DNA of 53,746 bases from a virus, in the IMG/VR virus record IMGVR_UViG_3300009156_000037; one strand, given 5' to 3'. A program made the position numbers and the translations under genes. Below the pieces are notes generated by a model. That model saw nothing but the letters and a program-made list of their open reading frames with translations, was not told the origin of the DNA and ran no database searches. Shown here one piece after another: positions 1 to 35,929 of the stretch (position 1 is the first letter of the stretch; every line of letters starts with the position of its first letter).

Positions 1-123
1 GTTGATCTATGTAGATAGTGCTGTTACGCAAGATCCAGTTAGCTTCCTGTTACATAGAGTGATGACTCCTAGACGTATCGGGGGGAGGGGTGGTAAGGTT
101 GGGGGTATGGAGGAGAACGTACG
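1..123. repeat. Left terminal inverted repeat (TIR-L), 123 bp
   Basis: nt 1-123 equal the reverse complement of 53624-53746, compared base by base. Identity stops at nt 124. It contains ATCTA-TG-TAGAT (5-16), CTGTTAC at 21-27 and 47-53, a G-rich SD-like tract and the ATG at 107. Confidence 0.95.
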
Positions 124-298
124 AGGTGCCAGAGACGCCTTCGAAGAGGAGATGGAAGCTCGGGAGCGAGCCTACGAACGTCGCGAAGATCGTCTGATCC
201 AGGACCTCAACGCAGCCAGGCAAGAGAACTTGGAGCTGAAGCTGGAGATTGCGCACCTGGAGAGCGAACTAGCCAACTGGCGAGGTACCCATGACTAA
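107..298 (+). CDS. Hypothetical coiled-coil protein (63 aa); its first 6 codons lie inside TIR-L
   Basis: ATG at 107 is preceded by AAGGTTGGGGG. The E/R/L-rich heptad-like sequence EEEMEARERAYERREDRLIQDLNAARQENLELKLEIAHLESELANW suggests a coiled coil. The longer TTG start at nt 2 is judged unlikely. Confidence 0.6.
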   Translation: MEENVRGARDAFEEEMEARERAYERREDRLIQDLNAARQENLELKLEIAHLESELANWRGTHD

Positions 299-545
299 CG
301 AAGAGGTGGAGGAGAAGGTCCTCGCGGACCCCACCTCCTACCTGAAAGGCTTCGTTGACGGACAGGCCGAGGCCCGCAGGTTCACCTGCCGGTTCTGCCA
401 CCTTCGCATCGACTGGTACACCAAGTACCGGATGTGGTTAACGGGCCGCCCATCGGGGCGACACTTGGACCGCAAGCAGAGGGCCACCTGCCGCGCCTTC
501 AACAACCCTGACGTACTGAACCGCCACGATCCCAAGCTCACCTGA
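291..545 (+). CDS. Hypothetical protein (84 aa)
   Basis: ORF with GAGG 5 nt upstream of the ATG. It overlaps the preceding stop by 8 nt (coupled). Confidence 0.6.
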   Translation: MTNEEVEEKVLADPTSYLKGFVDGQAEARRFTCRFCHLRIDWYTKYRMWLTGRPSGRHLDRKQRATCRAFNNPDVLNRHDPKLT

Positions 546-555
546 GGAGGAGCTA

Positions 556-717
556 GTGGAGAAGAAGGACAACCGGCCGCGCAACAGCATCGGGGACGCG
601 AGACGGATGAGCTACGGCACCATCTGGCAGCGGATGCTTGAGGTCTACGCGGTCGTCCCCGAACATGAGCTGCGGGCCATCCACCTGCGCTGGAAGAAGC
701 TGGCGGCCACCACATGA
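556..717 (+). CDS. Hypothetical small protein (53 aa), not in the ORF track
   Basis: GTG at 556 is preceded by TGAGGAGGAG. Its stop overlaps the next start as ATGA (714-717). Translated by hand: VEKKDNRPRNSIGDARRMSYGTIWQRMLEVYAVVPEHELRAIHLRWKKLAATT. Confidence 0.55.
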   Translation: MEKKDNRPRNSIGDARRMSYGTIWQRMLEVYAVVPEHELRAIHLRWKKLAATT

Positions 718-1040
718 GCGGTAAAAGAGCACCACGTATCCCGCTGCCTGAGGTGCTGGTGGGGCAGTTCCGGTCCAGGTTGCGCCAGGAACGCCTGGCC
801 CGCAAGATGACCTTGGACGAGGTCGCCGCGCTGGTGGGTGTGGCAAGAACATCGGTGGGCGACTGGGAGCGGGGCGTTTGTTTGCCCACCCCCGATCACG
901 CTGTCAGGTGGGCGTTGGCGGTGGGTGTCAAGCTCAGCTTCGAGGCCATCGTGACACCGCTCAACGAGTACGTACCCAGTGCCATCACCACCCAGTCCGT
1001 GCCTCGGGTGACGATCCGTCGCCGAGAAGATGAGGTGTAG
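714..1040 (+). CDS. XRE/Cro-CI-type helix-turn-helix transcriptional regulator
   Basis: LRQERLARKMTLDEVAALVGVARTSVGDWERG matches the classic HTH_3 pattern. Confidence 0.75.
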   Translation: MSGKRAPRIPLPEVLVGQFRSRLRQERLARKMTLDEVAALVGVARTSVGDWERGVCLPTPDHAVRWALAVGVKLSFEAIVTPLNEYVPSAITTQSVPRVTIRRREDEV

Positions 1041-1070
1041 TATCGGGCGCGTGTGTGAGGCCCGTCAGGC

Positions 1071-1111
1071 AAACGAACCCCCCTCAGGTAAACCCTGAGG
1101 GGGGTTCGTTT
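1071..1111. terminator. Bidirectional hairpin terminator between convergent genes
   Basis: Perfect 18-bp stem AAACGAACCCCCCTCAGG / CCTGAGGGGGGTTCGTTT with a 5-nt loop. It lies between the + gene ending at 1040 and the - gene ending at 1142. Confidence 0.8.
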
Positions 1112-1141
1112 GTCCCTCCCACCGTGGCGGGAACGTGACTG

Positions 1142-1354
1142 TCAGCCCGAAACTGATTCATCCCGCTGATGCTGGTCCTCAGCCTCACGGTTTCCTGGTG
1201 GTGATGGTGGGACTGGGTCGTGGCCGGACCCTCGGCAGTTCATTGGTGGCCACGAGCCGTCTTTAGCGCCGTGGTTCCACACCTTGCCGGCCTTGGTTAG
1301 TCGGTGCGATGTGTTGCAGATAGGGCAGTGACCTCGTGGTTGCTTGTTAGTCAT
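1142..1354 (-). CDS. Small Cys-containing (zinc-ribbon-like) protein (70 aa)
   Basis: Internal ATG at 1354 is preceded by AAGGAG. Contains HCPICNTSHRL...NCRGSG. The longer ORF upstream (to 1549) has off-frame-like P/R/T composition. Confidence 0.55.
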   Translation of the reverse strand: MTNKQPRGHCPICNTSHRLTKAGKVWNHGAKDGSWPPMNCRGSGHDPVPPSPPGNREAEDQHQRDESVSG

Positions 1355-1532
1355 CTGTCTCCTTGGCGGGGTGGTGCTTGTGGTTGGGGGCCTTGGCGCA
1401 CGTGAACCGAGTGGTCCAGGCGTACAAGGTGGAGAAGACCTGTTCGTGACTAACCAGCTCCCATGAGCCGAAAACCTGTTGTATGCGGCAGTTGCACCAT
1501 TTGCACCAGGCTCTACTGTGACGTACCACCAT
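1347..1532 (-). CDS. Small Cys-rich hypothetical protein (61 aa)
   Basis: GGAGGAG lies 9 nt upstream of the ATG. Contains the WCKWCNC motif. Confidence 0.5.
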   Translation of the reverse strand: MVVRHSRAWCKWCNCRIQQVFGSWELVSHEQVFSTLYAWTTRFTCAKAPNHKHHPAKETDD

Positions 1533-1728
1533 GAAACAGGCTCCTCCACATAATCGCCGCGACCTCTTTGTAGTGACTCTTGTCGTCAGGTCTCAAGGTG
1601 GCCCACACATCGTCTCGTGCCTGCCGGTTGCGAACGGAGGCCAGGCTCTCAGTCCTGGCCTCCGTCGCAACCATTTTGGCCAGCAGCAGGATTCGAGGGT
1701 TGGGCTTCGCTTCCGGCTGCTCTGCCAT
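1513..1728 (-). CDS. Hypothetical protein (71 aa)
   Basis: ATG at 1728 forms TGATG with the upstream stop. The N-terminal extension in the ORF track is judged spurious. Confidence 0.5.
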   Translation of the reverse strand: MAEQPEAKPNPRILLLAKMVATEARTESLASVRNRQARDDVWATLRPDDKSHYKEVAAIMWRSLFHGGTSQ

Positions 1729-2558
1729 CAGGACCGCTTCCTCCACGGGGGCAGCGTGTTGATGCGCTTGCCCTTGTTGTACTCCTCGGTGAGCAGGTCC
1801 GCGACCGCCATGACGATGCGGATCCGCTTCATCTTGGACCACTGCTGGGCCTGCGCCAGGAAGGCGAACGGTCCACCCGGGTAGCCGGACAGCTTGTCCG
1901 CCAGCGTGGGCAGGTCCACCAGGTCACCGTGCTCGGCGAGCAGGCGACCGATGCCCTCGAACAGGGCACCCTGGACACCGTAGCGGTCGTTGCCCCAGGC
2001 CTTGGAGATGACGAAGATGGTGGCCTCCACCAGGTTCGGCTCGGCGTCCAGCTTCTTCGACAGGTGGTAGATGCGCTCCACCGCCGCCACGGCGGCCACG
2101 TTGCCGTTGCCGACCTGCGGGGACACCGTCCAGCCGCGAGCCCGCAGCATGTCGGAGATCTCCAGGGCCGCCTCGTCCTCGGCGGTGCCGCGCACCTTGA
2201 ACTTGTCGATGACGCGGGGCTTGGTGGTGAAGTTGAGGTCCAGGAACAGCTGTGCCTCCTGCTTGAGGGTCAGGCCCTCGAACACGCGGCATGGTATGGC
2301 ACCTTCGTTGCTGGTTACTTCCTGGACGGTGCGCCACCGGTGCTGCCCATCGACAATGATGTCGACGCGCTTGGTGCCGTTGGGGGTGCGCCGTCGCGAC
2401 ACCGTGATGGTGCCCAGCGCATCCCAGCTGAAGTTCCGCTTCATCTTCTCGACCTTGTGCAGGTCGAGGGGACGCTGCACCAGGGGGTCTGTTTCCAGGT
2501 CGGAGACCGGGATCATTTCCTCGGTGTAGTGCGGGAGTTCTTTCGCCGCTTCAGCCAT
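1728..2558 (-). CDS. DGQHR-domain protein (DndB-like, ParB/Srx superfamily)
   Basis: IIVDGQHRWRTV is followed by QLFLDLNFTTKPRVIDKF, the two signature blocks of the DGQHR/DndB family. AAGGA SD is present. Confidence 0.75.
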   Translation of the reverse strand: MAEAAKELPHYTEEMIPVSDLETDPLVQRPLDLHKVEKMKRNFSWDALGTITVSRRRTPNGTKRVDIIVDGQHRWRTVQEVTSNEGAIPCRVFEGLTLKQEAQLFLDLNFTTKPRVIDKFKVRGTAEDEAALEISDMLRARGWTVSPQVGNGNVAAVAAVERIYHLSKKLDAEPNLVEATIFVISKAWGNDRYGVQGALFEGIGRLLAEHGDLVDLPTLADKLSGYPGGPFAFLAQAQQWSKMKRIRIVMAVADLLTEEYNKGKRINTLPPWRKRS

Positions 2559-3363
2559 TCTCTCGTTCCTTTCGTTCTTTCCTCAGGCGATTGCCCAAGA
2601 TCATTACCTTCCCCTTGATCGCGGCGAGTGCCGCTGTCAAGTTGTCGATCTCCTCCGTGGTGATTCCTGGCCGGATGTGTCCGATCCTGTCGAATGCGTT
2701 CACGACACCAGTTGCCTGGATCAGAAGACCATTGATCAGTTGTCGTTGTTCCTGCTCAGTGCCACCATGGCGACCCACCCTCTTGTACATTTTCAGTCTT
2801 CCTGCCGCCGCATGTATGGTCAGTTCTCCACTATCCACCTGTGCCGCAAGTTCAGCTGCTATACGACCTTCCTCATTGTTGAGGAGGGCCCGCCTGTACA
2901 GGGTGTGCGAGTGGTTGAGGATGGATTCCGTGGATCCCACCGCCTTTGCAACGAGAGGGCGAGTTGGTCCTATCGGGTCTCGTAGGTGCTTGGGTTTGCC
3001 CCGTCTGGCCTCTCGGCCGGCCATCATCCGTGCCATGATCTGGTCGTACAGGTCCTCGTACAGGAGGAAGATGCGGCGCGGTGAAACGGGTCGTTCCTGC
3101 ACACCGTGCTCATGTGTCCTTCTCAGGTGTGCAATTGATTGGTCGAAGGTTGCAGACCTCACGCATGCGATAGCTTGTCTTCCGTTGTTCTGAAAGACAC
3201 GGATACGTCGCAGTCCGTCGATGAGCTGGTTGTCCTGATCCAGTAGTACCGGGATCTTGAGGTCCAGGTGTGCTATGGAGGCCTCAAGGCCACTGAGGTC
3301 ATCACCTTGTTCAAGGTCACGAGAGATCTTGATGTCGGCAATGAGAACCGACTCCACTTTCAC
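2551..3363 (-). CDS. ParB N-terminal-domain-like protein
   Basis: IPVLLDQDNQLIDGLRRIRV resembles the ParB/Srx core. Start is taken at GTG 3363 after GGGAGGAG; the ORF-track N-terminus overlaps the primase gene and looks off-frame. There is an 8-nt overlap with the DGQHR gene. Confidence 0.6.
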   Translation of the reverse strand: MKVESVLIADIKISRDLEQGDDLSGLEASIAHLDLKIPVLLDQDNQLIDGLRRIRVFQNNGRQAIACVRSATFDQSIAHLRRTHEHGVQERPVSPRRIFLLYEDLYDQIMARMMAGREARRGKPKHLRDPIGPTRPLVAKAVGSTESILNHSHTLYRRALLNNEEGRIAAELAAQVDSGELTIHAAAGRLKMYKRVGRHGGTEQEQRQLINGLLIQATGVVNAFDRIGHIRPGITTEEIDNLTAALAAIKGKVMILGNRLRKERKERENG

Positions 3364-3389
3364 TCTGATGACTCCTCCCGTCGTCCGGT

Positions 3390-3406
3390 CCCAGGGGACC
3401 CCTGGG
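3390..3406. promoter_or_regulatory. 17-bp perfect palindrome CCCAGGGG-A-CCCCTGGG upstream of the ParB-like gene
   Basis: Read directly. It lies in the ~98-nt gap between the primase stop (3462) and GTG 3363. Confidence 0.4.
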
Positions 3407-3461
3407 GTTCTGAGTGCGACAGTAGCGCACCCCGTCAACAATGACAAGCGTCCTAGGATGA

Positions 3462-5915
3462 TTAGTCGAGTGCGGGCATCATGGTGCCCAAAATGCTCAC
3501 CCCAGTGCAGCGACCAATACCCCGCCACACCCGACCGGTGGCCTCCCGCACGTACTGCAAGGCTAGTCGTCCCGACTCCAGTCGGTGTACGAATCGGCGC
3601 TGGCCCAGGGCCCGTTCCCCCGTGTCTTTCAGCCACTCCGTGTACATCCGGTACAACTCCCTGCCCCGGATCTTGGTCTCAGGTGCCAGCTCCAGCACCC
3701 CCTCGTCCACGGTCTCCTCAATGAAGCGCATCACCTGGTCCGACTGGGACCGGTGCTCGGCCACCGCCGCCAGGATCTGCTCCGGCTCGCCCAACCCGTG
3801 TTCCAAGAAGTCGTAGAGGCCCTCCAGGAGCCAGTTGAGGATCCCGTCAGCCTCCTTGATGAGCACCTTGCGGGCCAGGTCCGGCTCCTCCTTGTGCTCA
3901 CCGTCGCGGGTGAACTCGGTCAGGAACGGGATCAGCTTGGCCCGCCGCCAGATCGCACCATCGTCGGAGTTGAACCGGGGTGGGTGGTTGGTGGCGATCC
4001 AGATCGAACACTCCGGTACCCATGACTGGTGCTTCTCGTACAGGTCACGGGAGGTCAGCTCGTCGCGGCCGGTCAGACGCTTGAGCATGTCCTCGTCGAA
4101 CGCGGTCGACTCGGCCGTCTCCGAGCTGGACACGAACCGGCGCCCACGCAGCTGGTGCAGGTCGTGGGTGGGCCCCTTGTCTCGGCTGGCCTTAAAGGTG
4201 CCGGGGGGCGCCGTCACCGCGTAGTCGCCGAACAGCATCCGCATGCACTCGATGAACTGGCTCTTGCCGGTGCCGGAGGGCCCGTAGATGAGGAACATGG
4301 CCCGCTGGTCGGAGTCACCGAACAGGGTGTAGCCCATGGCACGTTGCACATATCTACGGGTCTCAGGGTCGGGCAGGACTTCTTCCATGAAACGTCGGAA
4401 TCGGGGGGCTTCGGCCTTCGGATCGTAGGCGGCAGCCATCACTCGGGTGATCTTGTTGTCGGGGTTGTGTGGCTCCAGGGTGCGAGTTTTCAGGTTGAAT
4501 GTCCCATTGTGCAGATTGAGTAGATGACGGTCGGTGTCCATCTCCTCCCCGCCGAGACTGACCCCCTTCAGCGACTTCAGCCTGCGCATCACCGCATCAC
4601 ATCGGGCCATGAACCGGGTCCGTCGCCAGAACTTCAGCTCAGTTTCGTTGTTCGCTGTCTCGGCCTCGTTTAAGCGCTGCTCAGTGAAATCGAAGTAGCG
4701 ATCCACGGTCACGCCTTTGTAGTCGGGTGACCATTTGCGCCCGTCCCATGCCATGAACATGTTCGTGTGGTAGTTGAAGATAGGGAAGTATCCAAATACT
4801 TCGAAGTGCCAGTGAATGAAGTCCTTGCCGAGAGCATCATCATCCCGCACCACCCTGGGCCGACCACCAACCCGTGTCGGTGTCGTCGGTATGAACTCGT
4901 CCAGTACCGCCACCGAGCTACCAGGTGAAGACCCGCTGAAACCCTTGCTCACCAGGGCCTGAGTGGCCGCATAGAAGTTGCCACCATAGCGGTACGCGGC
5001 CAGGTACCCGAACTTCGAGTAGGTCATGTCTGGTTGCAGCTCGGCAATGTTCGACGAGAACACCTTCAGCAAGTCTGAGCCCCGATAGTTCACGGTCACC
5101 GAGTGGCCGAGCCGGGGGTCCTTACCAGGGCGAGCGTAGTACTCCTCCTCGCCGGTGCTGTGCGAGTAGCGGAACCCGTCCTCCTCCAGTAGGTCACGCC
5201 ACGTGACCTGCTGGGCCCACAGGTCTCCTGGACGTGAACCGGCCCCACTGCTTGTTGGACCTGGGGAGGCAAGGACAGGCAGTGGGGCCGGGGTCTGAGG
5301 CTTTTCACGACGGTCAAGGACGATGGTCAGCGCCTCATGGAACGCACAGCGTTCCCGCCACGACAACCCCAACAGCTGGCCGTACTCACCGGAGGCCAGC
5401 GACCAGGAGTCCCCGGTAGGGTGCACCAGGCCACTGGTGGGGGCGACAATGACGTACCCGCCCTCACCTCGGGTCTCGGACAGCACCTTCCCGGTCTCGC
5501 TGACGGCAATTTTCGTATTACCGGGAACCGAATTATCGGTAATTCGGTAAAGCCAGTGGATGCCACCCGAAGGGGTCCACTCCATGTACCCGTCAGGTCC
5601 GGTTAACTTGTCCCAGACGTAGCCGTAGCCGAGTTCGTCCAGCTCGTTTTGGATGTGGATGAGCAGAGTGCCTTTGGCGGCGTCGGCTTCAAGCTCGGTC
5701 ATTTCCATGTTGCCGGACACGTCGCCGCAGATCAGCGCCAAGCCGAGCTTGGCGTGCCCGTTGCCCCACCATTCATCCAATTGCCCTGACAGTGGTAGCT
5801 CTACCTGGTACTGGCCCCATCGGATGGCCGGCTTTTTGGTCCCGTCGTTGAGTACTGGGATGGTGGACACGCCGGCCGAGTTCCAAATCCGTGCTACCTC
5901 TGCTACTGTGGGCAC
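3462..5915 (-). CDS. Bifunctional primase-polymerase (AEP) / D5-P4-type SF3 helicase
   Basis: The N-terminus WNSAGVSTIPVLNDGTKKPAIRWGQYQ is typical of the prim-pol domain. The C-terminal half has Walker A IYGPSGTGKSQF and D5-like context. GTG start follows TAGGAGG. Confidence 0.85.
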   Translation of the reverse strand: MPTVAEVARIWNSAGVSTIPVLNDGTKKPAIRWGQYQVELPLSGQLDEWWGNGHAKLGLALICGDVSGNMEMTELEADAAKGTLLIHIQNELDELGYGYVWDKLTGPDGYMEWTPSGGIHWLYRITDNSVPGNTKIAVSETGKVLSETRGEGGYVIVAPTSGLVHPTGDSWSLASGEYGQLLGLSWRERCAFHEALTIVLDRREKPQTPAPLPVLASPGPTSSGAGSRPGDLWAQQVTWRDLLEEDGFRYSHSTGEEEYYARPGKDPRLGHSVTVNYRGSDLLKVFSSNIAELQPDMTYSKFGYLAAYRYGGNFYAATQALVSKGFSGSSPGSSVAVLDEFIPTTPTRVGGRPRVVRDDDALGKDFIHWHFEVFGYFPIFNYHTNMFMAWDGRKWSPDYKGVTVDRYFDFTEQRLNEAETANNETELKFWRRTRFMARCDAVMRRLKSLKGVSLGGEEMDTDRHLLNLHNGTFNLKTRTLEPHNPDNKITRVMAAAYDPKAEAPRFRRFMEEVLPDPETRRYVQRAMGYTLFGDSDQRAMFLIYGPSGTGKSQFIECMRMLFGDYAVTAPPGTFKASRDKGPTHDLHQLRGRRFVSSSETAESTAFDEDMLKRLTGRDELTSRDLYEKHQSWVPECSIWIATNHPPRFNSDDGAIWRRAKLIPFLTEFTRDGEHKEEPDLARKVLIKEADGILNWLLEGLYDFLEHGLGEPEQILAAVAEHRSQSDQVMRFIEETVDEGVLELAPETKIRGRELYRMYTEWLKDTGERALGQRRFVHRLESGRLALQYVREATGRVWRGIGRCTGVSILGTMMPALD

Positions 5916-5930
5916 TGATACCTCCTAAAG

Positions 5931-5971
5931 GTGAAGGGCCCTTCCTGTTGGCGGGAATAGGGGCCCTTCAC
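5931..5971. repeat. Inverted repeat GTGAAGGGCCC ... GGGCCCTTCAC (11-bp arms, 19-nt spacer)
   Basis: Read directly. It sits immediately upstream of the primase-helicase start. Confidence 0.7.
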
Positions 5972-6082
5972 TTTGTTGGTTAAGAGGGTGCCCGACGCGC
6001 AGGAAGACAGGGCAGTGTGGACATCATCCACCAGTTGGCCCCAATGCGCTAGCCCCGACACGGACCTTTCGACCTCTGAAAA

Positions 6083-6142
6083 GTTTCGCCTACGATCTGT
6101 TGGCCAGTTGGCCACATCTAACCTCAAAATCGTAGGCGAAAC
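6083..6142. repeat. 14-bp inverted repeat enclosing tandem GTTGGCCA GTTGGCCA
   Basis: GTTTCGCCTACGAT (6083-6096) pairs with ATCGTAGGCGAAAC (6129-6142). The loop holds two adjacent GTTGGCCA copies, and AGTTGGCC occurs again at ~6033-6040. Confidence 0.7.
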
Positions 6143-6159
6143 CTTCCACTACCCTTCGG

Positions 6160-6774
6160 CTAGAAGGGCGCCTCCGGGCTTTGCGGCGGGTAGGGAGGCG
6201 GGGGTGGCGTCTGCCCCATGAGCCGCGCTGCGCCACGATCGGCCTGGGCCGCCATCCGCTGCAAGGTGCTTTGCGCGTGGGCGGCCGTGTTCACGGTGGT
6301 GCTCACCGGCGGACTTACCGGGGCAGCGGTGGGGTCCTGCTGCTTCCAGCGCTCCGACTTGACGAAGTTCGGGTGCTCAACCAGCCACTTGGAACCACGG
6401 GCCACCGCTTCCGGATCCTGAGTGGCGGAACGCAGCTCGAACGGGGGGTTGCCCATGGTGGCCACACCTTGGACCATCCAGGCCAGCATGGGCCGGGGCG
6501 AGTCGATGCGGGGTCGCAGGGCCTGGATCAACTTGGCATTGCGCCACCAGATCCGTTGCCCGAGAACCCCGTATTGACCGGTGGGCTCGTCGAGCCAGTC
6601 CAAGTTGACCACGTCTACGATGATCACGTCGGAGGGCTTGTCGGGGCGGGAGTACTTGGTGGGGGAGTCGGCGATGTAGTCGACCGCCCACACGAGTAGC
6701 AAGTTGCCAACGATCTCCTTCGGTGGCATCAGGACGCCGGTGGTGGGGGCCGGTTCGTCGAAAGGTTGCGTCAT
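6160..6774 (-). CDS. Hypothetical protein with SSB-like C-terminal tail (possible ssDNA-binding protein)
   Basis: AAGGAG SD. The Pro-rich C-terminus ends ...PPPPPYPPQSPEAPF, reminiscent of the ...PPF/IPF tip of bacterial SSBs. It sits between the nuclease and primase genes. I could not verify an OB fold. Confidence 0.35.
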   Translation of the reverse strand: MTQPFDEPAPTTGVLMPPKEIVGNLLLVWAVDYIADSPTKYSRPDKPSDVIIVDVVNLDWLDEPTGQYGVLGQRIWWRNAKLIQALRPRIDSPRPMLAWMVQGVATMGNPPFELRSATQDPEAVARGSKWLVEHPNFVKSERWKQQDPTAAPVSPPVSTTVNTAAHAQSTLQRMAAQADRGAARLMGQTPPPPPYPPQSPEAPF

Positions 6775-6816
6775 GTCGCGATCTCCTTGTTCTGGTTCGT
6801 GTTCTGGTACTTGGGT

Positions 6817-7629
6817 TCAGCTGCCGGGACAGCCGAAATTGTCCGCTGACTGGTCGGGGCCCATGTCGGGCCGATAGAACGGACAGAAGCCGCACTGGTA
6901 GGCCACTGCGGGGATCTGTTGGAAGCGGTGGGGGTTGCTGGCTATGTCGAGGTCCAGTACCGAAGCCGCGACCCGGTACATCCGGTCCAATGCCGCCAGT
7001 GCCACCTCTTCACTGTAGTCGCCCACCCATACGTACATGTTGGACAGCCATCCGGAGCGGGGGTAGAAGGCCAAGGCGACCTTCTTGACCGGCATACCGG
7101 CCAGCCGGTATCCGTACCCATACAGCTGGACTTGCACCACATACTCGGGTGGCGGGCCGTCCTTGGGGATCTTTCTCATGACGTCGGGTCCGGCCGACTT
7201 GTGGTCGATCACCATCTCGTCGTGGTACAGGTCGGAAGTGCCGCTGATGAACTCACCGATCTGCAACTTGCGTTCCGTGGTCCAGCCAGCCTGATCACGG
7301 AACGTTTTCTCCAACCACATGTGGATGGCCTGACCCACGGTTGCTGGCCACGGGTCGGTGCGGGTGTTCACCGCCGGGGTTTCGGTTAGCAGATAGGCGA
7401 TCTTCCGGTCGCAGGGTGTGCCCAGATCTGAGGGGCCGAGGCTCTTTTGCAGGGTTCTTGGGTCGTTGTTGGCCGCGTCCAAGATGATGGTCATGAGGTC
7501 GTCGCGTAGTTTGCGGGCCAGGGGGTCTTCGTCGAAAGGTTCCGTGAACATGGGGCAGGTGGGGTGGTTGATCCGGTCTTCTTCGCCGGGTACCACCATC
7601 ATTTCGGTGTTGCATACCACGCAGTTCAC
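6817..7629 (-). CDS. Cas4/RecB-family PD-(D/E)xK exonuclease with Cys cluster
   Basis: Contains GTSDLYHDEMVIDHKS (D...D/ExK), QVQLYGYGY (QxxxY) and C-terminal CGFCPF...C plus an N-terminal Cys. Start is taken at GTG 7629, forming GTGA with the upstream stop; ATG 7665 is the alternative. Confidence 0.75.
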   Translation of the reverse strand: MNCVVCNTEMMVVPGEEDRINHPTCPMFTEPFDEDPLARKLRDDLMTIILDAANNDPRTLQKSLGPSDLGTPCDRKIAYLLTETPAVNTRTDPWPATVGQAIHMWLEKTFRDQAGWTTERKLQIGEFISGTSDLYHDEMVIDHKSAGPDVMRKIPKDGPPPEYVVQVQLYGYGYRLAGMPVKKVALAFYPRSGWLSNMYVWVGDYSEEVALAALDRMYRVAASVLDLDIASNPHRFQQIPAVAYQCGFCPFYRPDMGPDQSADNFGCPGS

Positions 7630-8063
7630 GCAACTCGCTCCGTGGTTTGGTCTTTGAGTACCCACATGCCGAGGATGCCCAGGTCTATTGCGTTGAGCTG
7701 ACCTTGTCGAATTTCCACCATCAGACGTTCCAGGGGCGTGCCTTTCTGTTCGGCGTAGTGGTGGAGTGGGGTGACGTCGTTGAGTTGGTACCCGGCGTCC
7801 TCGAACTGTTCGATTGTTTTGAGTGCTCTGTTGTAGAAACGCCCAATTCTGCCAGCGGTGAGTGGGCGGATCATGATCGCCTCGGCTGGATCACGTTCCC
7901 ATAGCCGGTACGCCGCCGGTGAGGTTTGAAGCAGTTCAGACATGAAGCTGCGGCTCACCCCCAGCTTGGTGCGCAGCTCCAGCAGGGCGCCGGAGGAGAT
8001 GGCATCCCGGCCAGCCTGTTCGTCTTGGGCAAGGTAGTACTCGTACACGTCGTCCAGACTCAT
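7626..8063 (-). CDS. HTH DNA-binding protein, first gene of the leftward block
   Basis: ATG at 8063 follows GGAAGGGAGAGG. LRTKLGVSRSFMSELLQTSPAAYRLWER is HTH-like. Confidence 0.55.
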   Translation of the reverse strand: MSLDDVYEYYLAQDEQAGRDAISSGALLELRTKLGVSRSFMSELLQTSPAAYRLWERDPAEAIMIRPLTAGRIGRFYNRALKTIEQFEDAGYQLNDVTPLHHYAEQKGTPLERLMVEIRQGQLNAIDLGILGMWVLKDQTTERVA

Positions 8064-8173
8064 GACACCCACCTCTCCCTTCCGACTTCTCGCAGGATAG
8101 ACCTCACAGATCCCCACTGGGAAGACGGTAGGGGGAGGGTGTGACAGTTTCAGTTTCCACCTAAAGTGATCAT
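8064..8173. promoter_or_regulatory. Divergent promoter region between the leftward replication block and the rightward late block
   Basis: 110-nt gap between divergent genes. GTGACA (8141-8146) and TAAAGT (8162-8167) lie on the + strand, with TATCCT on the - strand. Tandem CAGTTT CAGTTT is present. Confidence 0.45.
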
Positions 8174-9619
8174 ATGGCGCTCAGCCTGGCAGAACGGTTG
8201 GCCCTGGTCCCGGTAGAGATCAGGGAGCCGTGGCTTGCCCAGCTACCGGCCAGCGTGCTGGAGGAGATGATCCGGGGCGAGTGGTGGTTCCTGGCCCGTC
8301 CGGAGCAGATCCCACCTGAAGGTGACGAGCTGATCTACCTGTACATGGCCGGTCGGGGCGCTGGCAAGAGCCGTTCGGGCTCCGAGTGGATCGTGGACAG
8401 GGTCGAAAAGCACCCCTTTGACCGTCATGGGGTACCCACCGAGTGGCTGGTCGTGGCCAACACCTTGGCCGATGCCCGCACCATCAACGCCGAAGGTCCG
8501 TCAGGGATCTTGAACGTGCTCAACCGGCGTCGTATCGAGCATCGATACAAGCAGTCGCCACGACCGATGGTCCTGTTCCCGGACGGTGCCAAGATCTATC
8601 TGGAGGGCGCAGACGATCCGGACACAGGGCGTGGATACAACGCCGCCGGTGCCCTTTGTGACGAGATGGCCATGTGGGTCAAACCGTATGAGACCTGGTA
8701 CGAGGGGCTCATGCCAGCACTGCGGGCTGACCTCATCAATGATCACCCACGTGCATTTGTCACCACGACCCCCAAGCCGATCAAGCTGCTCATCGAGTGG
8801 CTGGCCCGCGACGACGGCTCCGTTCATGTTATTACCGGATCAACATTTGACAACGCAACGAACCTTTCACGTCACGTCTTGGCGGAACTACGTAAACGGT
8901 ACGAGGGCACTGCCCTGGGCGAGCAGGAGCTGTACGGCAAGCTACTGGAGCTGTCCGGCGGTGGCCTTTTCAAGCGGATGGACATCGTCAAGAACCGGGT
9001 TACCCGTGCCTATGTCGATGAGCAGGACATCATCTCCACCATCGTCGGGATGGACCCGAACCTTACCGGCGAAGAGGCCGAGACTGGGATCGTCGTGATG
9101 AGCCGTTCCAAAGACGATCATCAATATGTTCTGGCTGATCGCACCGTGCCGTACTCCGGAAGGGCAGCATCCCTGGCAGCCTGGCGGGCAGTGGCAGAGT
9201 TCGGCGCCGACTTCCTCGTCTACGAAGAGAACCTCGGCAAACGGTTCCTGCAAGAAGTCCTCCAGGACGCTTACCAAGAGCTGGTCGAGGAAGGTTTGTT
9301 CCCCCGCTACACCACCGCACCTATGAAGCCAGTCCATGCCCGTCATGGCAAGAAAACCCGGGCCGAACCGGTGGCTATGCGCAGCGAACAGGGTCGTCTA
9401 CACCTGGTCGGCGAGTGGGAGCAGCTGGAAAACCAGATGGTTCTGTTCGACCCGGAGTCCACCCGAGAGTCGCCGGACCGCATGGATGCCATGGTCCACG
9501 CCTCGTTGCAGCTGATGGCTGGGGAGAAGAAGCGGATGCGTATCGCGGACCCGTCCCGGTATGCCTGGAACATTGACCCGTCCGGCTACAGCGTGACCAA
9601 CCTTGAGAATCTCGTCTAA
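8174..9619 (+). CDS. Terminase large subunit
   Basis: Walker A is LYMAGRGAGKSRSG and Walker B-like is ALCDEMAMW. The nuclease half has GMDP... and DRMDAMVHA. It is followed by the portal gene. Confidence 0.9.
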   Translation: MALSLAERLALVPVEIREPWLAQLPASVLEEMIRGEWWFLARPEQIPPEGDELIYLYMAGRGAGKSRSGSEWIVDRVEKHPFDRHGVPTEWLVVANTLADARTINAEGPSGILNVLNRRRIEHRYKQSPRPMVLFPDGAKIYLEGADDPDTGRGYNAAGALCDEMAMWVKPYETWYEGLMPALRADLINDHPRAFVTTTPKPIKLLIEWLARDDGSVHVITGSTFDNATNLSRHVLAELRKRYEGTALGEQELYGKLLELSGGGLFKRMDIVKNRVTRAYVDEQDIISTIVGMDPNLTGEEAETGIVVMSRSKDDHQYVLADRTVPYSGRAASLAAWRAVAEFGADFLVYEENLGKRFLQEVLQDAYQELVEEGLFPRYTTAPMKPVHARHGKKTRAEPVAMRSEQGRLHLVGEWEQLENQMVLFDPESTRESPDRMDAMVHASLQLMAGEKKRMRIADPSRYAWNIDPSGYSVTNLENLV

Positions 9620-11885: not shown

Positions 11886-12600
11886 CAACGATGAGGCCAC
11901 CGTGTACCGGGTCGTGTCGGCAGCGCTGACCCGGTGGCTCAGCGCCACTCGGGACTTGGTGATGGCCCCATTTCGTCGCTACCGGCTGATGCCCAACCCG
12001 TCTGGCGTCGCGGCGACTCAGCAGTTGTGGGACGACGAGGTGGACACGATCATCACCGTCCTAGGACGCATCGCTATGGGTGCCTGGGCTGAAGCCACTG
12101 ATGTCCCCCCGGTGTCCCGCCACGCCTTCGTTATGAGTCAGCTCGCCCAAACCCAGAACCTGCTAGTTCGCATCCCAGACGAGGTGTACAACCTGGTCTT
12201 TGCCGAGATAACAGATGGGGTGAATGCCGGTGAAAATTTGGATCAGGTGGCTGCGCGCATTGACGCGCTTCTCAACTTCACCGCAAGCGAAAGATGGCCC
12301 AATCGCGCCCGCACCATTGCCACCACTGAAGTTACCCGTGCTTATGGCGCTGGAACTCTCGCCGCTGGCATGGAACAGTCCCGTGTCACCGGTCGAATGC
12401 TGCGCAAACGCTGGGACACTGAACACGATCAGCGTGTACGGGCCACCCACCGTGACGTGGATGGTGCGGTAGTGGACTTGACCATGCCCTTCTACGTGGG
12501 TGGTTTTCCACTTCTTTTCCCCGGTGACCCTTTAGCACCGGCCGATGAAGTGGTCAACTGTAGATGCGACCTGGTCATCGTTAACGAGAGGGGTCGGTGA
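11875..12600 (+). CDS. MuF-like minor head protein
   Basis: RARTIATTEVTRAYGAG, DQRVRATH and VVNCRCDL are typical Phage_Mu_F/SPP1 gp7 blocks. Confidence 0.75.
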   Translation: MPRDNDEATVYRVVSAALTRWLSATRDLVMAPFRRYRLMPNPSGVAATQQLWDDEVDTIITVLGRIAMGAWAEATDVPPVSRHAFVMSQLAQTQNLLVRIPDEVYNLVFAEITDGVNAGENLDQVAARIDALLNFTASERWPNRARTIATTEVTRAYGAGTLAAGMEQSRVTGRMLRKRWDTEHDQRVRATHRDVDGAVVDLTMPFYVGGFPLLFPGDPLAPADEVVNCRCDLVIVNERGR

Positions 12601-15068
12601 TGGTAGACCCGAACCCGGCCCGAGGGATGCCACTGGCGTTGCAGCGCTACTGGCTGGCGGGTAAAGGCGCGGCGAAGATTCGCTGGGGTATGCCGCACGA
12701 TTTCAACCGGTGCGTGCGACAACTGCGCAAGTACTTCCCGAAAAACCCTCAAGGCTTGTGCAACATCCTGCACCAGAAAGCTCTGGGTGCCCCGCCCGGT
12801 AAAGGCCATCCTGGCGAGCACGCCATGCTCGCGGCGGCCAGTGAGATGCAAGACATGGGCGCGCTGTGGGCTGGCCCGCTTGCCCCCATCGGGCGCCCCA
12901 CTGGTGAACCCGCCAAGACGCGGGTGTTCGAACCGGGTTCGATGGGGCACCGCTCGCTGCCGCTGCCGTTGGCCTACCGCAAGGTCAACTCGGGTTCACA
13001 CCAAGGTGCGGTCACCGTGGGCCGCATCCTCGGCTTCACCATCGGCCCCGACCACGAAGGCCAGGACTGGGCCTGGGCGTGGGGGGACTGGCTCAACGAG
13101 GACATCGTGCCCGAGGTCAAAGAGGCTCGGTACATGGTCCAGCAGGGTGTGGTCGGTCCCAGCGTCGACCCCGGTGGGCGGGCCATCGCCACCATCAACC
13201 CGGAAAATGGCTACGAGCACACCATCGAGTACACGGTCGGTGGGGTCACCCTGGTCGCTATCCCCGCGTTCGCGTCGATGCGCCTGTTCGATTTGGACGA
13301 GGATGGCATGTGGCCGGACGACGACCCCGACATGATGGGTGACTATGAGGGATTCGACTCTGACGACAGCGCTGACTGTGGCTGTGGCGACGGATATGTC
13401 TTACGTGTGGGTGAGGCCGACACGTATGCGGTCAACCCGGCCGGGTGGCGTGGGCTCCCCCTGGCGCCTCGTGATGCAGTCTTTGACAATGACGACGCGG
13501 TCAAGCGGATCACCGCGTGGGCCCAGGTCAACGCCCAGGGTGCTGACGTCGATAAGCTGCGCCGCGCATTCATGTGGCGAGACCCCCGCCAGCCGGAGAC
13601 GGCGACCCAGGCGTACCGCCTTCCGGTAGGCGACATCATCAACGGACGACTGACTTTGATCTACCACGCCATCTACGCCGCCGCCGCCCTGATCTCCGGC
13701 GCCCACGGTGGGCTCCCCAACGTGCCCGATGAGGACAAGAACCAGCTCCGCAACGTCATCACCGACATCTACAAGGAGATGGCGGCCGAATTCAATGACC
13801 CATCGGTGCGGGCCCCCTGGGACCGGCCAGAGACGCAAGGTAAGGAGTTCGCCATGGCCGATTCCCCCGTTGAGCCCTACGGTGACGTGAAGTACGCCGA
13901 CCCTGGCTACCGGGACAACAAGAAGCGCTACCCGATCGACACGGAGGAACACGCTCGGGCGGCCTGGAGCTACATCAACAAGCGCAAGAATGCCGCGTTC
14001 TACACTCCCGAACAGCTCAAAACGATCAAGGAACGGATCCGGGCTGCCCTGAAGAAGTTCGGAGTAACCGTGTCCGAGGAGGCCGGCGAACACGCCATGG
14101 ACTACGCACACCTACTCAACCCACCAGCGGCCTGGTTCGAGGACCCCGAGTTCGACGCCAGGACGCCGCTCACCGTCACCGACGATGGGCAGGTCTACGG
14201 CCACCTGGCCGCATGGGGCGAGTGTCATCGCGACGTCACCAACCGGGAATGTGTCCTGGCGCCCCACTCCAAGCAGGGCTACGACCCGTTCCACCTTGGT
14301 GCGGTGCAGACCGACGACGGCAAGCTGGTCAAAGTCGGCAAGATCGTCATGGACACCCGTCACGCCGACATCCGCCACGGATACGCCTCCGCCGCCCTGC
14401 ACTACGACAACACCGGTGACGAGGTTGCCGTGGTCCGGGCAGGCGAAGATGAGCATGGCGTATGGGTGGCCGGTGCGGTAGTACCCGAGGTCGACCAGAA
14501 GAAGATCGCCAAGCTGCGCCGCTCCCCACTGTCCGGGGACTGGCGCCGCGTCGACGGCAACCTGGAGCTGACCGCCGCCCTGGCCGTCAACGTGCCCGCC
14601 TTCCCCGTGTACGCCATGGACGGTGACGAGCGAACCGCTCTCGTCGCTGCCGGAGCTGTCTACCCCGACCCGGAAGCAGGCACCTTCAGCATCGACATGG
14701 ACCAGATCCGGGAGCATGTCCGCGACCAGGTACAGGAGCAGGAAGCCCAGGAGGATCGGGGTTGGCGGCTGCGGGAAATCCTGGAACAGGAGGAGGACCT
14801 GCTTCAAGCCAAACGGGCCGCCATGCTCGCGGCCATTTATGCTGCGGAAACAGGAGATGCCCCCCTACCAGTTCAGCAGGACGTGGCTGATTTGGCGTCG
14901 GAGGCGGCCATGTTGGACCGTCAAGCCAACGCCCAGTTCACCATCGTGCAAGAGCCGGAAGGGGCCAACTCCTCTGGTCAGGAAGTGGAGGAGCCGGCCC
15001 CAGTCCAGGGCGAAGGTCAGGTTCCTGTGTCGCAGGCTAGCGTGCCAGGACAGGGAGCGGGGTACTAA
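12597..15068 (+). CDS. Capsid maturation protease (multi-domain, scaffold-like acidic C-terminus)
   Basis: YWLAGKGAAKIRWGMPHDFNRCV, YADPGYRDNKKRYPIDTEEHARAAWSYI and HLAAWGECHRD are blocks I associate with actinophage head proteases. It lies between the MuF and capsid genes. Confidence 0.6.
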   Translation: MMVDPNPARGMPLALQRYWLAGKGAAKIRWGMPHDFNRCVRQLRKYFPKNPQGLCNILHQKALGAPPGKGHPGEHAMLAAASEMQDMGALWAGPLAPIGRPTGEPAKTRVFEPGSMGHRSLPLPLAYRKVNSGSHQGAVTVGRILGFTIGPDHEGQDWAWAWGDWLNEDIVPEVKEARYMVQQGVVGPSVDPGGRAIATINPENGYEHTIEYTVGGVTLVAIPAFASMRLFDLDEDGMWPDDDPDMMGDYEGFDSDDSADCGCGDGYVLRVGEADTYAVNPAGWRGLPLAPRDAVFDNDDAVKRITAWAQVNAQGADVDKLRRAFMWRDPRQPETATQAYRLPVGDIINGRLTLIYHAIYAAAALISGAHGGLPNVPDEDKNQLRNVITDIYKEMAAEFNDPSVRAPWDRPETQGKEFAMADSPVEPYGDVKYADPGYRDNKKRYPIDTEEHARAAWSYINKRKNAAFYTPEQLKTIKERIRAALKKFGVTVSEEAGEHAMDYAHLLNPPAAWFEDPEFDARTPLTVTDDGQVYGHLAAWGECHRDVTNRECVLAPHSKQGYDPFHLGAVQTDDGKLVKVGKIVMDTRHADIRHGYASAALHYDNTGDEVAVVRAGEDEHGVWVAGAVVPEVDQKKIAKLRRSPLSGDWRRVDGNLELTAALAVNVPAFPVYAMDGDERTALVAAGAVYPDPEAGTFSIDMDQIREHVRDQVQEQEAQEDRGWRLREILEQEEDLLQAKRAAMLAAIYAAETGDAPLPVQQDVADLASEAAMLDRQANAQFTIVQEPEGANSSGQEVEEPAPVQGEGQVPVSQASVPGQGAGY

Positions 15069-15071
15069 CAC

Positions 15072-18000
15072 ATGGCCGGTGTCGGCGACAGCTGGGGCAC
15101 GCGGGAGGAACTACTCCACCCACGTGACCGTCATGGCCGTTTCCGCTCCGCGTGGAAGATGGCCGAAGGTGTCGTCGACAAGCTCATATCACGGCTGGCC
15201 GCATTCAACCCCCGCACCTTCACCTCCGACGAGGAGGCGGGTCACTACTCCCAGGCTCGGGGCGGACGCTACAAGCGTGGTGAGAACCGGGAAAGCGTCG
15301 TTCGGGCCATGTTCCGGGGCTACAGCACTGTCAACGACGACCTGCGGGCTGGTAAAACACCACCCGAGGTGGCGGTCTTTGACCGGGCCATGCAACCCAC
15401 CGACGAGGACCTCATCCTGTCCCGAACCGTAGGCCCGGAAGCGTTCGGTCTCGACGCGTCCACCATTGACCAGATTGAGGAGTACACCGGCAAACTGGTC
15501 GCCGACAAGGCCTACAGCTCGGTACAGCTGGGCACCCCCACCCGACGTCCCGGTTCAGTCACCATCACCTACGCCACCCCCAAAGGCACCCCGGCCATCT
15601 TCCCGTGGGCGTCGCCTGGACAGGCGACCAGGGAGGTGATCCTGGACCACGATCAGCCGTTCCGGATCACCAAGGTGGACCCTGATGGCCAAGGTGGGTA
15701 CTCAGTCTTGGCGGTAGTGGAGCCCAAAGGTACTGGCGGCGAGGTCAAGCCGATAGGGACCAGAGCACTACAACCGACTACCCCAGAACCTGAGGCCCCC
15801 AACGCTCCTGCCGCCCCGCAGGCACCTGTGCAGACTGGTCAACCGGGACGGCCGGAGATCCCACCGGCCCCCCGCAACGAGCCGGTGATCAGTGAGTCCA
15901 TCGGCGGTGGCCCCCAGGCCCCAGGGGCACCTGAGGCCCCAGGAACACCACAGGCACCACAGGTGACCACCCCGGAAGCTCCAGCCGCACCAGTGGACTT
16001 CCGGCAGGCTGTCAAGGACGCCAACCTGCCGGTGCCATCGAAAGGCCCACGGCGCAAGGCATGGAATGAGGCCTTCCTCAGCCTGACCATGCGTCGTCGT
16101 GATCCTGATGATGTGCTTCGCGAGTTGGACTCCGACATGAAGGCCTTCCGCCTTGAACAGGAGGATCGCCTATCGCGTGGCGAAAAGGCGGACCTGCATT
16201 TCGGCGACGACCTGGACGCTCTCAAGCAGCTCGACGACCTGATCCGGGAGAACTACAACATTCCGAGGACCGGGGAAAAGCAGGCCCTGGCACCTGAGGC
16301 CCCCGCTGCGCTCGAAGCCCCCGCTGCTCCGAAGCGTCGCCGTGGCGGTGGTGGATCTCAAAGCAACGCTACCCCCAAGGAGAAGGCCGCCGTTCGGCAA
16401 AGTCAACGGGAACGTGGCATTCGCAAAGAGGCGCCACCTAAGAAGCAGGCGCCGCCACCACAGGTACCCGAGCCGTCTACTGAGGGGCAGCAACTTCTCG
16501 ACGCCGCTGGGATCACCGCCAAGCCGAAGACGGACATGGGCAGGGCAGGTATCGCTATCACAGCGGACCAGGTTGCCCGTAAGAAGCTATCCAAGAAGAA
16601 GGCCGGCGAGCGGCTACGGTCATTTGCCGACAGTGGCACGGCCGGTGAGGACGCTGACCTGGTTCGGCAAGTTGCTGATGCCATTGATCCACCGAAGTTG
16701 GCCGCCCCCACCAAGAAGGCCGTCCCAGCTGAGGCTGTTCCTGAGCCGTCTACGCCTGCTGGTGTGCCTGGATTCCGGTCCCGCAAGATAGCTGGGTCGC
16801 CGGACACTCGTATTGGTGCCGAGACCCAGCGTTACGTGGATGATTTGGTTAAGCGCGGGGACTACGAGGGTGCCCGCACTCGGATAAAGTCGGCTGTCGC
16901 CGACCTGCGGTCTCGCAAGCTCACCAACGACGACCTGTTGTCTAGGCTGGACAGTGATCCAGATTCCCTGGAATCCACTCGTAAAGGTGAGATTGAGGCG
17001 CTGCGTAACCTGGACGAGGAGATCGCGCACCAGGCGAAGAAGGCTGCACCAGCCAAGAAGGCGGCACCTGAGCCACGTACCCCCGGTCAACCGCCCAGGC
17101 GAGCGGTGAAGAAGGTTGCCCCTGAGGGTGCCTTGGCACCCACGCCCAAGGCTGAGGCTGAAGCGGGACGTAAGCCCACCTTGGACGAGGTCCGGGGGAT
17201 GAAAGTTACCGAGCTTCGGGCCGAGGCCAAGAAGCACGGCATCAAGATCTCCTCCACCCGGAAGGCGGACATCGCGGAGGAGCTGGCCCGCAAACTGGAC
17301 CTGACACCAGGTGAAGGTCAGCCACCGGCCAAGAAGGTGGCCAAGGCTGTCGTCCCCACTGACCTTGATGCGGACCTCAACACCACCATCCCTAACCTGC
17401 GCAAGATCGCCGAGCAGGAGCAGATCGAGGTACCCAAGAGCGTCAGGCTCAAGGCTGATCTTCAGCGCTACATCCACGACACGCGCCGCAGTGGTGCCCC
17501 GATCCGAGCGCAGCAGGCACAAGAACGCATTAAGGCCACCAAGACCGACCTGAAGGACGTCAACGCACCCGAGGCGGCCCAGGTGGTGCTGGACCGGATG
17601 ACCATCGCCCAGATGCGTCAGCTAGCTGATGAGAAGGGCATCACCATCCCAAAGACGGCCAAGCGGAAGGCCGACGTCAAAGAGGCCTTGGCTCGTAGCC
17701 TCAATCCACCGGATACGTTCAAGCCGGCCCCCGCACCTGCACGTGAGGCGCCCCCCATCCAGATCCCCGAAGACCACCCGGCGGTGCAGCTCGTGGACCG
17801 GATGCTGAACGAGTTGAACCAAACCCAGATCCGGGAGGCCCTCGCCGAGCAGGGCATCACTGACATCCTGCCTGAAGGGGACCTTGACCGGGAGAAAATC
17901 CTCCACGCCATGTTCCGTCGCGCTGCCCAGATGGAGCTGGCCCACATCCAGGCGCAGCGAGTCAAACGCAAGAAGGCCGCCGCGAAGGTCACTGAGGCGT

Positions 18001-35868: not shown

Positions 35869-35929
35869 TGTTAGTGCACCTGCGAAAGAACAGGACCATG
35901 AATGAAAGGGCGAGAGAACAGGTATAGGA

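Follow-up and report, generated by a model that had tools for sequence, protein, structure and literature searches.

The viral sequence IMGVR_UViG_3300009156_000037 of IMG/VR (53,746 nt; "the window" below, meaning the whole stretch of DNA that was analyzed) carries in its left 8 kb two overlapping minus-strand genes whose products, we are confident, both belong to the ParB/sulfiredoxin (Srx) superfamily. In this report, we found that the downstream gene very likely encodes a member of the Pfam family DUF6551 (protein 1), that the upstream gene very likely encodes an orphan ParB-like protein (protein 2), and that genes of these two families are paired beyond chance. The two would form a translationally coupled cassette that is accompanied in the window by neither ParA nor a DNA-modification enzyme. 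We tentatively propose, at somewhat short of an even chance, that they constitute a ParA-independent, nucleoside triphosphate (NTP)-gated DNA-binding or regulatory module of the early replication/regulation region. Both families, ParB_N orphans and Pfam DUF6551, are of already known kinds. In the literature that we searched, we found no description of the two being coupled in a conserved cassette, which on present evidence does not represent a new class of system.

Two overlapping genes for ParB/Srx-fold proteins

A first-pass annotation, made from the nucleotide sequence alone, had described two overlapping genes downstream of a primase-helicase gene. Both open reading frames (ORFs) are found where that annotation placed them on the minus strand (Table 1), and they overlap by 8 nt (ATGGCTGA). 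The motifs to which it drew attention, IPVLLDQDNQLIDGLRR in protein 2 and DGQHR and LFLDLN in protein 1, are likewise all present. Its assignment of both products to the ParB/Srx superfamily is borne out by profile searches and hhalign for protein 2, and by an AlphaFold2 model compared with known structures by Foldseek for protein 1. The two proteins are related to one another through their N-terminal domains only (hhalign E 4e-5 over 70 columns).

Protein 1 consists of an N-terminal ParB/Srx fold and an all-helical C-terminal domain. Its best Pfam family is DUF6551 (PF20188), for which it scores 26.7 bits against a gathering threshold of 26.8. We accept its membership on family evidence: PF20188 is pre-annotated on 45 of the 48 word-indexed homologues of the protein, down to 26% identity, and gp49 of phage Ramsey scores 62.5 bits against DUF6551. 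Protein 1 also falls in phrog_1033, "ParB-like partition protein" (9.4e-15). A scan of GTDB genome contigs with DUF6551 patterns yielded no confirmed relative.

The earlier description of protein 1 as DndB-like holds for the superfamily and fails for the family, its home being DUF6551. Against the DGQHR model TIGR03187 it scores 34.2 bits (E 2.2e-8) over residues 41-113 only, below the trusted cut-off of 58.85, and strict placement in that family is therefore not upheld, though 33 of 44 members of the protein 1 family show sub-threshold similarity to the model (E<=1e-3; best E 5.6e-11). The scores for DndB itself are lower than the respective cut-offs by a wide margin (18.4 bits vs a gathering threshold of 29.1 for PF14072; 24.5 vs 450 for TIGR04172), as is that for DpdB (NF041060; 11.9 bits vs 300), the protein to which PADLOC gives its sole, weak match (E 0.0032). 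Protein 1 also misses the cut-off for GmrSD_N (14.5 bits vs 33.2). The model and Foldseek revealed no nuclease match in its C-terminal domain, and the coupling to HNH/DUF1524 that is typical of GmrSD/DUF262 proteins is absent.

The AlphaFold2 model of protein 1, built from 44 sequences, has a predicted local distance difference test (pLDDT) score of 94.3. Its best matches in the Protein Data Bank (PDB) are Bacillus subtilis ParB with cytidine diphosphate (CDP), Myxococcus xanthus ParB with CTPγS or CDP, the ParB N-domain of pNOB8, Noc, Caulobacter crescentus ParB, PadC and sulfiredoxin; for ParB-CDP, ParB-CTPγS, Noc and sulfiredoxin the probability of the match is 1.00. Full-length matches to the model are found in BFVD among predicted phage proteins (template modeling score, 0.76-0.80). 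The family scores and these structural matches together indicate that protein 1 is a ParB/Srx-fold DUF6551 protein, a sister of the DGQHR/DndB group and not a member of it.

The conserved residues of protein 1 retain the hallmarks of nucleotide binding in this superfamily. An alignment with Noc (profile E 0.0038) equates them with the box I Arg, the box II GERR and the box III Asn of ParB, and all three nucleotide-binding boxes are kept (VQR, DGQHR and EA..F..LN). Within the family, R29, G71, H73, R74, F105 and W188 are invariant, and E101, A102 and N109 are nearly so. Q72 of the DGQHR motif is variable, being W, M or G in relatives.

Protein 2 is more elusive. Its own sequence has no match in Pfam, NCBIfam or PADLOC, its sole PHROG match is weak (phrog_12047, "ParB-like partition nuclease", 6.4e-4), and a word-indexed search returned just two relatives. 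An exhaustive HMMER search (E<=1e-3) found 273 cluster representatives of about 270 aa each. A profile of 71 of these family sequences matches PDB entries for Helicobacter pylori Spo0J, M. xanthus ParB, Thermus thermophilus Spo0J and Noc at 7e-13 to 1e-10, and also matches Srx, SbnI and KorB; this depth was needed, as a 3-sequence profile found nothing in the PDB. PF02195, which protein 2 itself does not match, is matched by 42 of the 71 family members, and hhalign aligns residues 4-106 with canonical ParB at 97.8% probability (E 1.2e-12). Judged by these profiles, protein 2 carries a recognizable ParB_N domain (PF02195 family) at residues ~4-106. A putative helix-turn-helix (HTH) at ~133-160, suggested by an HTH-like pattern (RPLVAKAVGSTESILNHSHTLYRRA) and predicted helices, and a conserved, presumably helical C-terminal region at ~204-268 follow. 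None of the family members matches PF17762 or PF23552 (HTH_ParB and the ParB C-terminal dimerization domain).

The ParB domain of protein 2 appears to be catalytically degenerate. Across the 71 sequences, G50 is invariant and L26, P38, D49, R52, R53, R97, R112 and Q206 are nearly invariant. Set against the list of ParB residues required for hydrolysis of cytidine triphosphate (CTP) (PMC13229309), none of the catalytic ones (the Glu of GERR, the Gln of QPR and the Asn of ENLQR) is kept: the Glu is replaced by Leu in the GLRR motif, Ile or Ser takes the place of the QPR Gln, and Gly87 stands at the position of the box III Asn. Given these losses, CTP hydrolysis by protein 2 is unlikely. The phosphate-binding arginines are kept in GxRR and probably also in box I, for which the alignment is tentative, and phosphate contacts may thus persist.

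The pairing of the two families is not peculiar to the window. We compared six-frame ORFs from 64 viral contigs that contain DUF6551 relatives with hidden Markov models (HMMs) of both families. An ORF of the protein 2 family abuts the DUF6551 gene upstream and on the same strand in 47 of 68 loci, several of which are near-identical copies, and in 51 after one HMM iteration; the reverse co-occurrence, from the protein 2 family to DUF6551, covered few contigs only. A 64%-identical relative has the pair, as does a 68-kb relative, in which it follows a small HTH_17 gene; in prophages of Mycobacterium abscessus it corresponds to gp44 and gp45 of phiGD20-1. Gp44 is annotated as a "helix-turn-helix DNA binding domain protein" and scores 23.1 bits for ParB_N; the family HMM finds it at 1e-42, though tblastn of protein 2 against cultured phages gives no match.

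In five divergent loci (L041, L062, L064, L066 and L071), the HMM match of the upstream partner is confined to profile positions ~210-266 of the protein 2 family. Because the C-terminal ~60 residues alone are kept in these most divergent partners, we infer that they are the part of protein 2 that counts for working with DUF6551, and they may form the interface to protein 1. DUF6551 genes also follow other upstream partners, among them Ramsey gp48, Orf33 of Staphylococcus phage phiRS7 and HTH_23-type proteins. Ramsey gp48 and phiRS7 Orf33 were compared with protein 2 as possible remote homologues and rejected as unrelated. The common layout is an upstream protein of ~230-480 aa, with an HTH seen in some cases, and then DUF6551; the presence of a different HTH protein upstream in the more distant loci fits a scheme of "DNA-binding adaptor plus DUF6551". 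Temperate phages of Mycobacterium and Staphylococcus have the DUF6551 gene and its upstream partner at the start of the early region, immediately behind the repressor and cro. No convincing conserved third gene was found downstream of the pair across the loci, the clusters there being dominated by spurious high-GC ORFs.

Table 1. Features of the left part of the window and their positions
Feature	Position	Strand	Description
Hairpin (inverted repeat I7)	1070..1112		19-nt arms 100% complementary, 5-nt loop (CAAACGAACCCCCCTCAGG...CCTGAGGGGGGTTCGTTTG), no T-run
71-aa ORF	1513..1728	minus	ATG shares one base with the protein 1 stop (TGATG); lineage-specific
Protein 1 gene	2558-1728	minus	ATG start, 276 aa
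LFLDLN block of protein 1	2232..2249	minus	Box III equivalent; N109 aligned with the Asn of ParB ENLQR (Noc alignment)
DGQHR motif of protein 1	2337..2351	minus	Box II equivalent; aligns to GERR of Noc
Protein 2 gene	3363-2551	minus	GTG start, 270 aa; ribosome-binding site GGGAGGAG at 3379-3372
C-terminal helical region of protein 2	2560..2754	minus	Still kept in those partners of DUF6551 genes that diverge most
GLRR motif of protein 2	3205..3216	minus	Aligns to GERR of ParB (box II, P-motif); catalytic Glu replaced by Leu
Palindrome, 17 bp	3390..3406		CCCAGGGG-T-CCCCTGGG; between the -10 element and the ribosome-binding site
Promoter-like element	3419..3447	minus	TTGTCA-17 nt-TACTGT; upstream of the protein 2 gene
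Primase-helicase gene	5915-3462	minus	817 aa; Pfam domains Prim-Pol/D5_N/DUF5906; immediately upstream of the pair

Relation to known ParB-fold systems

The closest described relatives of protein 1 are the phage DUF6551 proteins having the ParB-CTPase fold that were included in a 2025 survey, in which the phage members tested bind CTP or adenosine triphosphate (ATP) in the differential radial capillary action of ligand assay (DRaCALA; PMC12704722). Protein 1 shares with them the Pfam family, the fold and the residues of boxes I, II and III. However, the proteins tested there are different ones, the survey describes no function or partner for them, and it does not mention an upstream ParB-like partner.

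Two further relatives belong to DNA-modification systems. DndB, the regulator of dnd phosphorothioation (PF14072/TIGR04172; PMC4507180), has the DGQHR motif and the ParB/Srx N-domain of protein 1. Its combination of NTP binding with DNA binding at its own promoter, as described for it (PMC4507180, PMC12704722), is a likeness to our proposed model only. The similarity of protein 1 to DndB spans only ~55 residues and scores far under the cut-offs, the C-terminal domains differ, and there is no dndCDE in the window. DpdB, the ATPase partner of DpdA in 7-deazaguanine DNA modification (PMC10164549), is a ParB-like NTPase of the DGQHR type and acts on DNA together with a partner, but protein 1 falls far below the DpdB cut-off and neither DpdA nor a tRNA-guanine transglycosylase (TGT) is on record in the window.

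Protein 2 is most readily compared with the orphan ParB regulators Noc and KorB. Like them, it has a ParB N-domain and no ParA or ParA-binding motif, and a palindrome lies in its own leader, as would be expected for an autoregulated ParB. Unlike them, it has GLRR for GERR and lacks the QPR Gln and the box III Asn, no HTH_ParB or C-terminal dimerization domain is detected in it, and its coupled partner is another ParB-fold protein instead of KorA or a membrane-targeting helix. From canonical ParB of ParABS systems (TIGR00180) it is set apart by the lack of CTPase residues, of a ParA-binding motif and of a parS cluster, and by the absence from the window of a ParA with the motif KGGxxGK[ST]. The ParA-binding motif, [LFI]G[KR]G[LFI], is absent from protein 1, protein 2 and all 71 members of the protein 2 family.

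Two systems offer precedents for a ParB-fold protein that works with a partner. The phage ParB associated with 5mYOX (PMC13229309) is a ParB homologue without ParA that activates its partner protein on double-stranded DNA (dsDNA). Mutations of its NTP site have little effect, and thus the ParB fold can act non-catalytically. In that case, however, the ParB has no DNA-binding domain and the partner is a TET/JBP dioxygenase, of which none is on record in the window. The AspA-ParB-ParA system of pNOB8 (PDB 5k5a/5k5d) shares with our model the logic of a site-specific adaptor plus a ParB-fold protein, and its ParB N-domain ranks with the top structural matches of protein 1 (TMq 0.40-0.42). It differs in being archaeal and ParA-dependent and in having a small winged-helix adaptor, and there is no relationship at the sequence level.

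Leader, neighboring genes and ends of the window

The spacer between the primase-helicase gene and the protein 2 gene is 98 nt long. It is 88% identical to that of one relative (L005), vs 64% for the adjacent protein, and TTGAC(G/A)-16/18-TAC(A/T)GT stands at the place equivalent to the promoter-like element in ~14 of 18 relatives. A strict sigma-70 scan of positions 1-8400 called no promoter, so the promoter call rests on this conservation across relatives, from which we conclude that the pair probably has its own promoter. The palindrome of the leader is retained in L005 with one inner-pair change, and a G/C-rich palindrome, different in sequence, is found in most of the 18 relatives in the interval from the -10 element to the ribosome-binding site. 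RNA folding of the 18 leaders gave mixed z-scores, some relatives reaching -2 to -3.6, and does not separate an operator from a stem-loop; the palindrome is a candidate for either an operator or a 5' stem-loop. No parS cluster and no repeated palindrome family were found in the window, nor were iterons or repeated binding sites found near the pair. Upstream of the ParB-like gene, six loci (L013, L026, L027, L029, L030 and L037) share a C-rich motif, CCCACCCC(T)CCC, in their leader or promoter spacer; in some of these loci, predicted folds pair it with the GGGAGG ribosome-binding site, and where it stands with respect to the -10 element varies.

The leftward operon lies within the left 8 kb of the window. 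Its genes specify, from first to last, a 145-aa protein, a Cas4-like exonuclease (270 aa; phrog_1674, 1.8e-66), a 204-aa protein without an assigned function, the primase-helicase, protein 2, protein 1, the 71-aa ORF, which has no match in Pfam or PHROG, and a 61-aa ORF. A small convergent rightward operon ends in an HTH_3 protein gene at 714-1040. The hairpin listed in Table 1 separates the two operons and is likely a bidirectional terminator that closes the transcription unit. A megablast search of positions 1500-6200 against cultured phages gave no match. The family HMM scan revealed no second ParB-fold gene in the window besides the pair.

Upstream of the primase gene lies a 244-nt intergenic region (5916-6159) with a 20-nt inverted repeat (6077-6096 / 6129-6148, 90% complementary), a candidate promoter or origin region. 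In the early operon of the 68-kb relative, a gene for a protein with an RF-1 domain (peptide chain release factor-like; L080, 5067-5420) sits between an HTH gene and the exonuclease-like gene. Farther to the right in the window, beyond the portal and Mu-F-like genes, come two genes of very large size (12597-19376, plus strand), encoding 822 aa (DUF6582) and 1434 aa (no Pfam match). The terminase is <40% identical to that of any cultured phage, and the phage is thus distant from cultured groups. Leftward genes of the right arm (47285-47707, 52117-52518 and 53148-53384, all minus strand) include those for a WhiB-like regulator, a YAcAr/PF10686 protein and a MerR/HTH_17 excisionase-like protein; the WhiB-like regulator points to an actinobacterial host. 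A cluster of sugar-chemistry genes lies downstream of the structural genes (34496-43097, plus strand). It encodes two glycosyltransferases (weak matches), an NAD-dependent epimerase/dehydratase, a Methyltransf_13/14 C-methyltransferase, a UDP-glucose/GDP-mannose dehydrogenase, a second S-adenosylmethionine (SAM)-dependent methyltransferase and a Ricin-B lectin protein, and may serve virion glycosylation.

The window ends in perfect 123-nt inverted repeats (1-123 and 53624-53746). The first-pass annotation had taken them for a terminal inverted repeat (TIR), a reading that we reject. Within the MEGAHIT contig that includes the window, the repeat has a length of exactly 141 nt, equal to the assembler's k-mer, and a contig of the Joint Genome Institute (JGI) reads 851 nt beyond the left end of the window, adding one 108-aa gene; the repeat thus marks an assembler boundary and no physical genome end. 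Protein 1 is also on record in a 61,282-nt contig. In the 68-kb relative (contig INPhiseqgaiiFebDRAFT_100866061, L080/L081, 68,262 nt), the block primase-HTH_17-ParB-DUF6551...HTH_3 is found in two mutually inverted copies that enclose a unique 5.6-kb stretch with ten small genes; this doubling is either a fold-back misassembly through a segment flanked by inverted repeats or a real large inverted duplication. From these observations, we take the window to be, in all probability, the large unique portion of a genome of ~61 kb that also has an inverted-repeat-flanked segment, and not a complete linear genome with repeats at its ends. Since the TIR is no genome end, an end-binding role for the pair, which had been suggested, loses its basis. 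Two ORFs that read inward, 2-298 (plus strand) and 53368-53745 (minus strand), begin with the same 41 residues (MIYVDSAVTQDPVSF...MEENVR), which the inverted repeat encodes, and then diverge into different proteins.

Proposed action of the pair and competing explanations

In the mechanism that we propose, protein 2 would serve as the subunit that targets DNA and protein 1 as the one that senses nucleotides. A promoter of its own, within the early replication/recombination operon, would drive the pair. The two products would then load on phage DNA as an NTP-gated heteromer, possibly at the palindrome in their own leader, and the loaded complex would regulate early transcription and/or replication. 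A bolder version of this idea would extend it beyond the window. A catalytically degenerate, DNA-targeting ParB would recruit a nucleotide-binding DUF6551 protein to make a ParA-independent, NTP-gated clamp on phage DNA, as a general early-gene device of temperate and lytic actinobacterial phages; an analogous HTH adaptor with DUF6551 in Firmicutes phages would likewise control the early program, whether the follow-through of the lysis-lysogeny decision after cro or the licensing of replication. We consider this generalization doubtful.

Several observations weigh against the proposed module. That proteins 1 and 2 interact at all is something we infer. The palindrome is present in a single copy in the window, with no second copy at up to 3 mismatches, and it could be a 5' stem-loop of the mRNA that is unrelated to either protein; the folding energy of the leader is itself no better than that of shuffled sequences (z = +0.32 for the window). 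The HTH of protein 2 is detected by no profile, and homology to ParB stops at about residue 106. Structure prediction gave for protein 2 a poor and unusable model (pLDDT 48.6, from a 3-sequence alignment). The DUF6551 genes of cluster F1 mycobacteriophages and of phiRS7 follow unrelated upstream partners, and protein 2 is therefore no obligate partner of DUF6551. Much of the adjacency of the pair to a primase gene comes from one clade of related 55-64 kb phages and may thus reflect shared ancestry. Finally, because the window does not include the inverted-repeat-flanked segment of the genome, the absence of ParA and of modification genes holds for the window only. Within it, the absences noted by the first-pass annotation stand: no frame contains the deviant Walker A motif of ParA, and no Dnd or Dpd/TGT domain is among the recorded Pfam matches of the called genes. 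Those matches include no TET/JBP dioxygenase domain either.

The adjacency to the primase gene raises the possibility that the pair is an accessory of the replication origin, binding the phage origin and recruiting or regulating the PrimPol-D5 primase-helicase. In 32 of 70 loci the pair has a gene for a primase homologue immediately upstream, and in 3 others, arranged differently, such a gene is found 2-3 kb downstream, which lends some support to a link with replication; the Cas4-like exonuclease in the same module and the position of the phiRS7 DUF6551 gene at the head of a Sak/SSB/DnaD-loader region fit as well. Yet most of the primase-linked loci come from the single clade, the M. abscessus prophages and cluster F phages have DUF6551 with no such primase within 5 kb on either side, and the lack of iterons or repeated sites near the pair also counts against an origin. 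We regard this explanation as rather unlikely. Another possibility is that the pair is directed at the host, as a ParB-like nuclease or NTPase that damages or reorganizes host DNA or as an anti-defense factor. Relatives are annotated as "ParB-like nuclease domain protein", ParB-fold ATPase toxins have been reported, and the position right after cro in temperate phages would suit an early effector. In the cluster F1 phage Girr, the non-homologous upstream neighbor, gp48, which is annotated as an "antirepressor", is strongly cytotoxic on overexpression (PMC11075535), but its Ramsey counterpart bears no relation to protein 2. The pair has no fused or adjacent nuclease domain (HNH, DUF1524), and the only defense-related match is the weak one to DpdB. 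A role against modification-dependent defense, as the first-pass annotation had suggested, is without contextual support, and a host-directed function is on the whole distinctly unlikely.

We likewise find it improbable that the pair assists a DNA-modification enzyme encoded elsewhere, in the manner of DndB as a regulator, of DpdB as an ATPase partner or of the ParB activator of phage thymine dioxygenases. The sub-threshold similarities of protein 1 to DGQHR, DndB and DpdB proteins would be explained thereby, the 5mYOX thymine dioxygenase does require a phage ParB on dsDNA (PMC13229309), and methyltransferase and glycosyltransferase genes are present in the window at 34.5-42.4 kb. That cluster, however, is 35 kb away and its Pfam matches point to sugar biosynthesis, no Dnd, Dpd/TGT or TET/JBP domain is recorded in the called genes of the window, and no modification gene stands beside the pair in those loci whose neighbors are annotated or clustered. 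Equally improbable, in our estimation, is a partition or maintenance system of an extrachromosomal prophage, whether ParA-independent or dependent on a host ParA. Protein 2 is a genuine ParB homologue, no integrase domain is among the recorded Pfam matches of the called genes in the window, and the HTH_3 gene of the rightward operon is repressor-like. Against this stand the lack of ParA, of a ParA-binding motif and of a parS array, the occurrence of the pair in integrating M. abscessus prophages and of DUF6551 genes in integrase-carrying phages, and the dismissal of the TIRs, which had suggested a linear plasmid-like genome, as an assembly artefact. For the modification and partition explanations, every testable hallmark of the context is missing.

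It is only recently that ParB-fold proteins beyond chromosome segregation came to be seen as widespread nucleotide switches whose role is unassigned, especially on phages. The cassette described here provides a genetically tractable case, in that two different ParB-fold proteins are encoded in one operon and cultivable carriers exist among the M. abscessus prophages. If the two proteins act together, as in the NTP-gated module that we favor, they would illustrate a division of labor in which DNA targeting falls to a degenerate ParB and nucleotide sensing to an NTP-binding ParB-like protein. Further, a function would then be assigned both to Pfam DUF6551 and to a family of ~270 unannotated cluster representatives.

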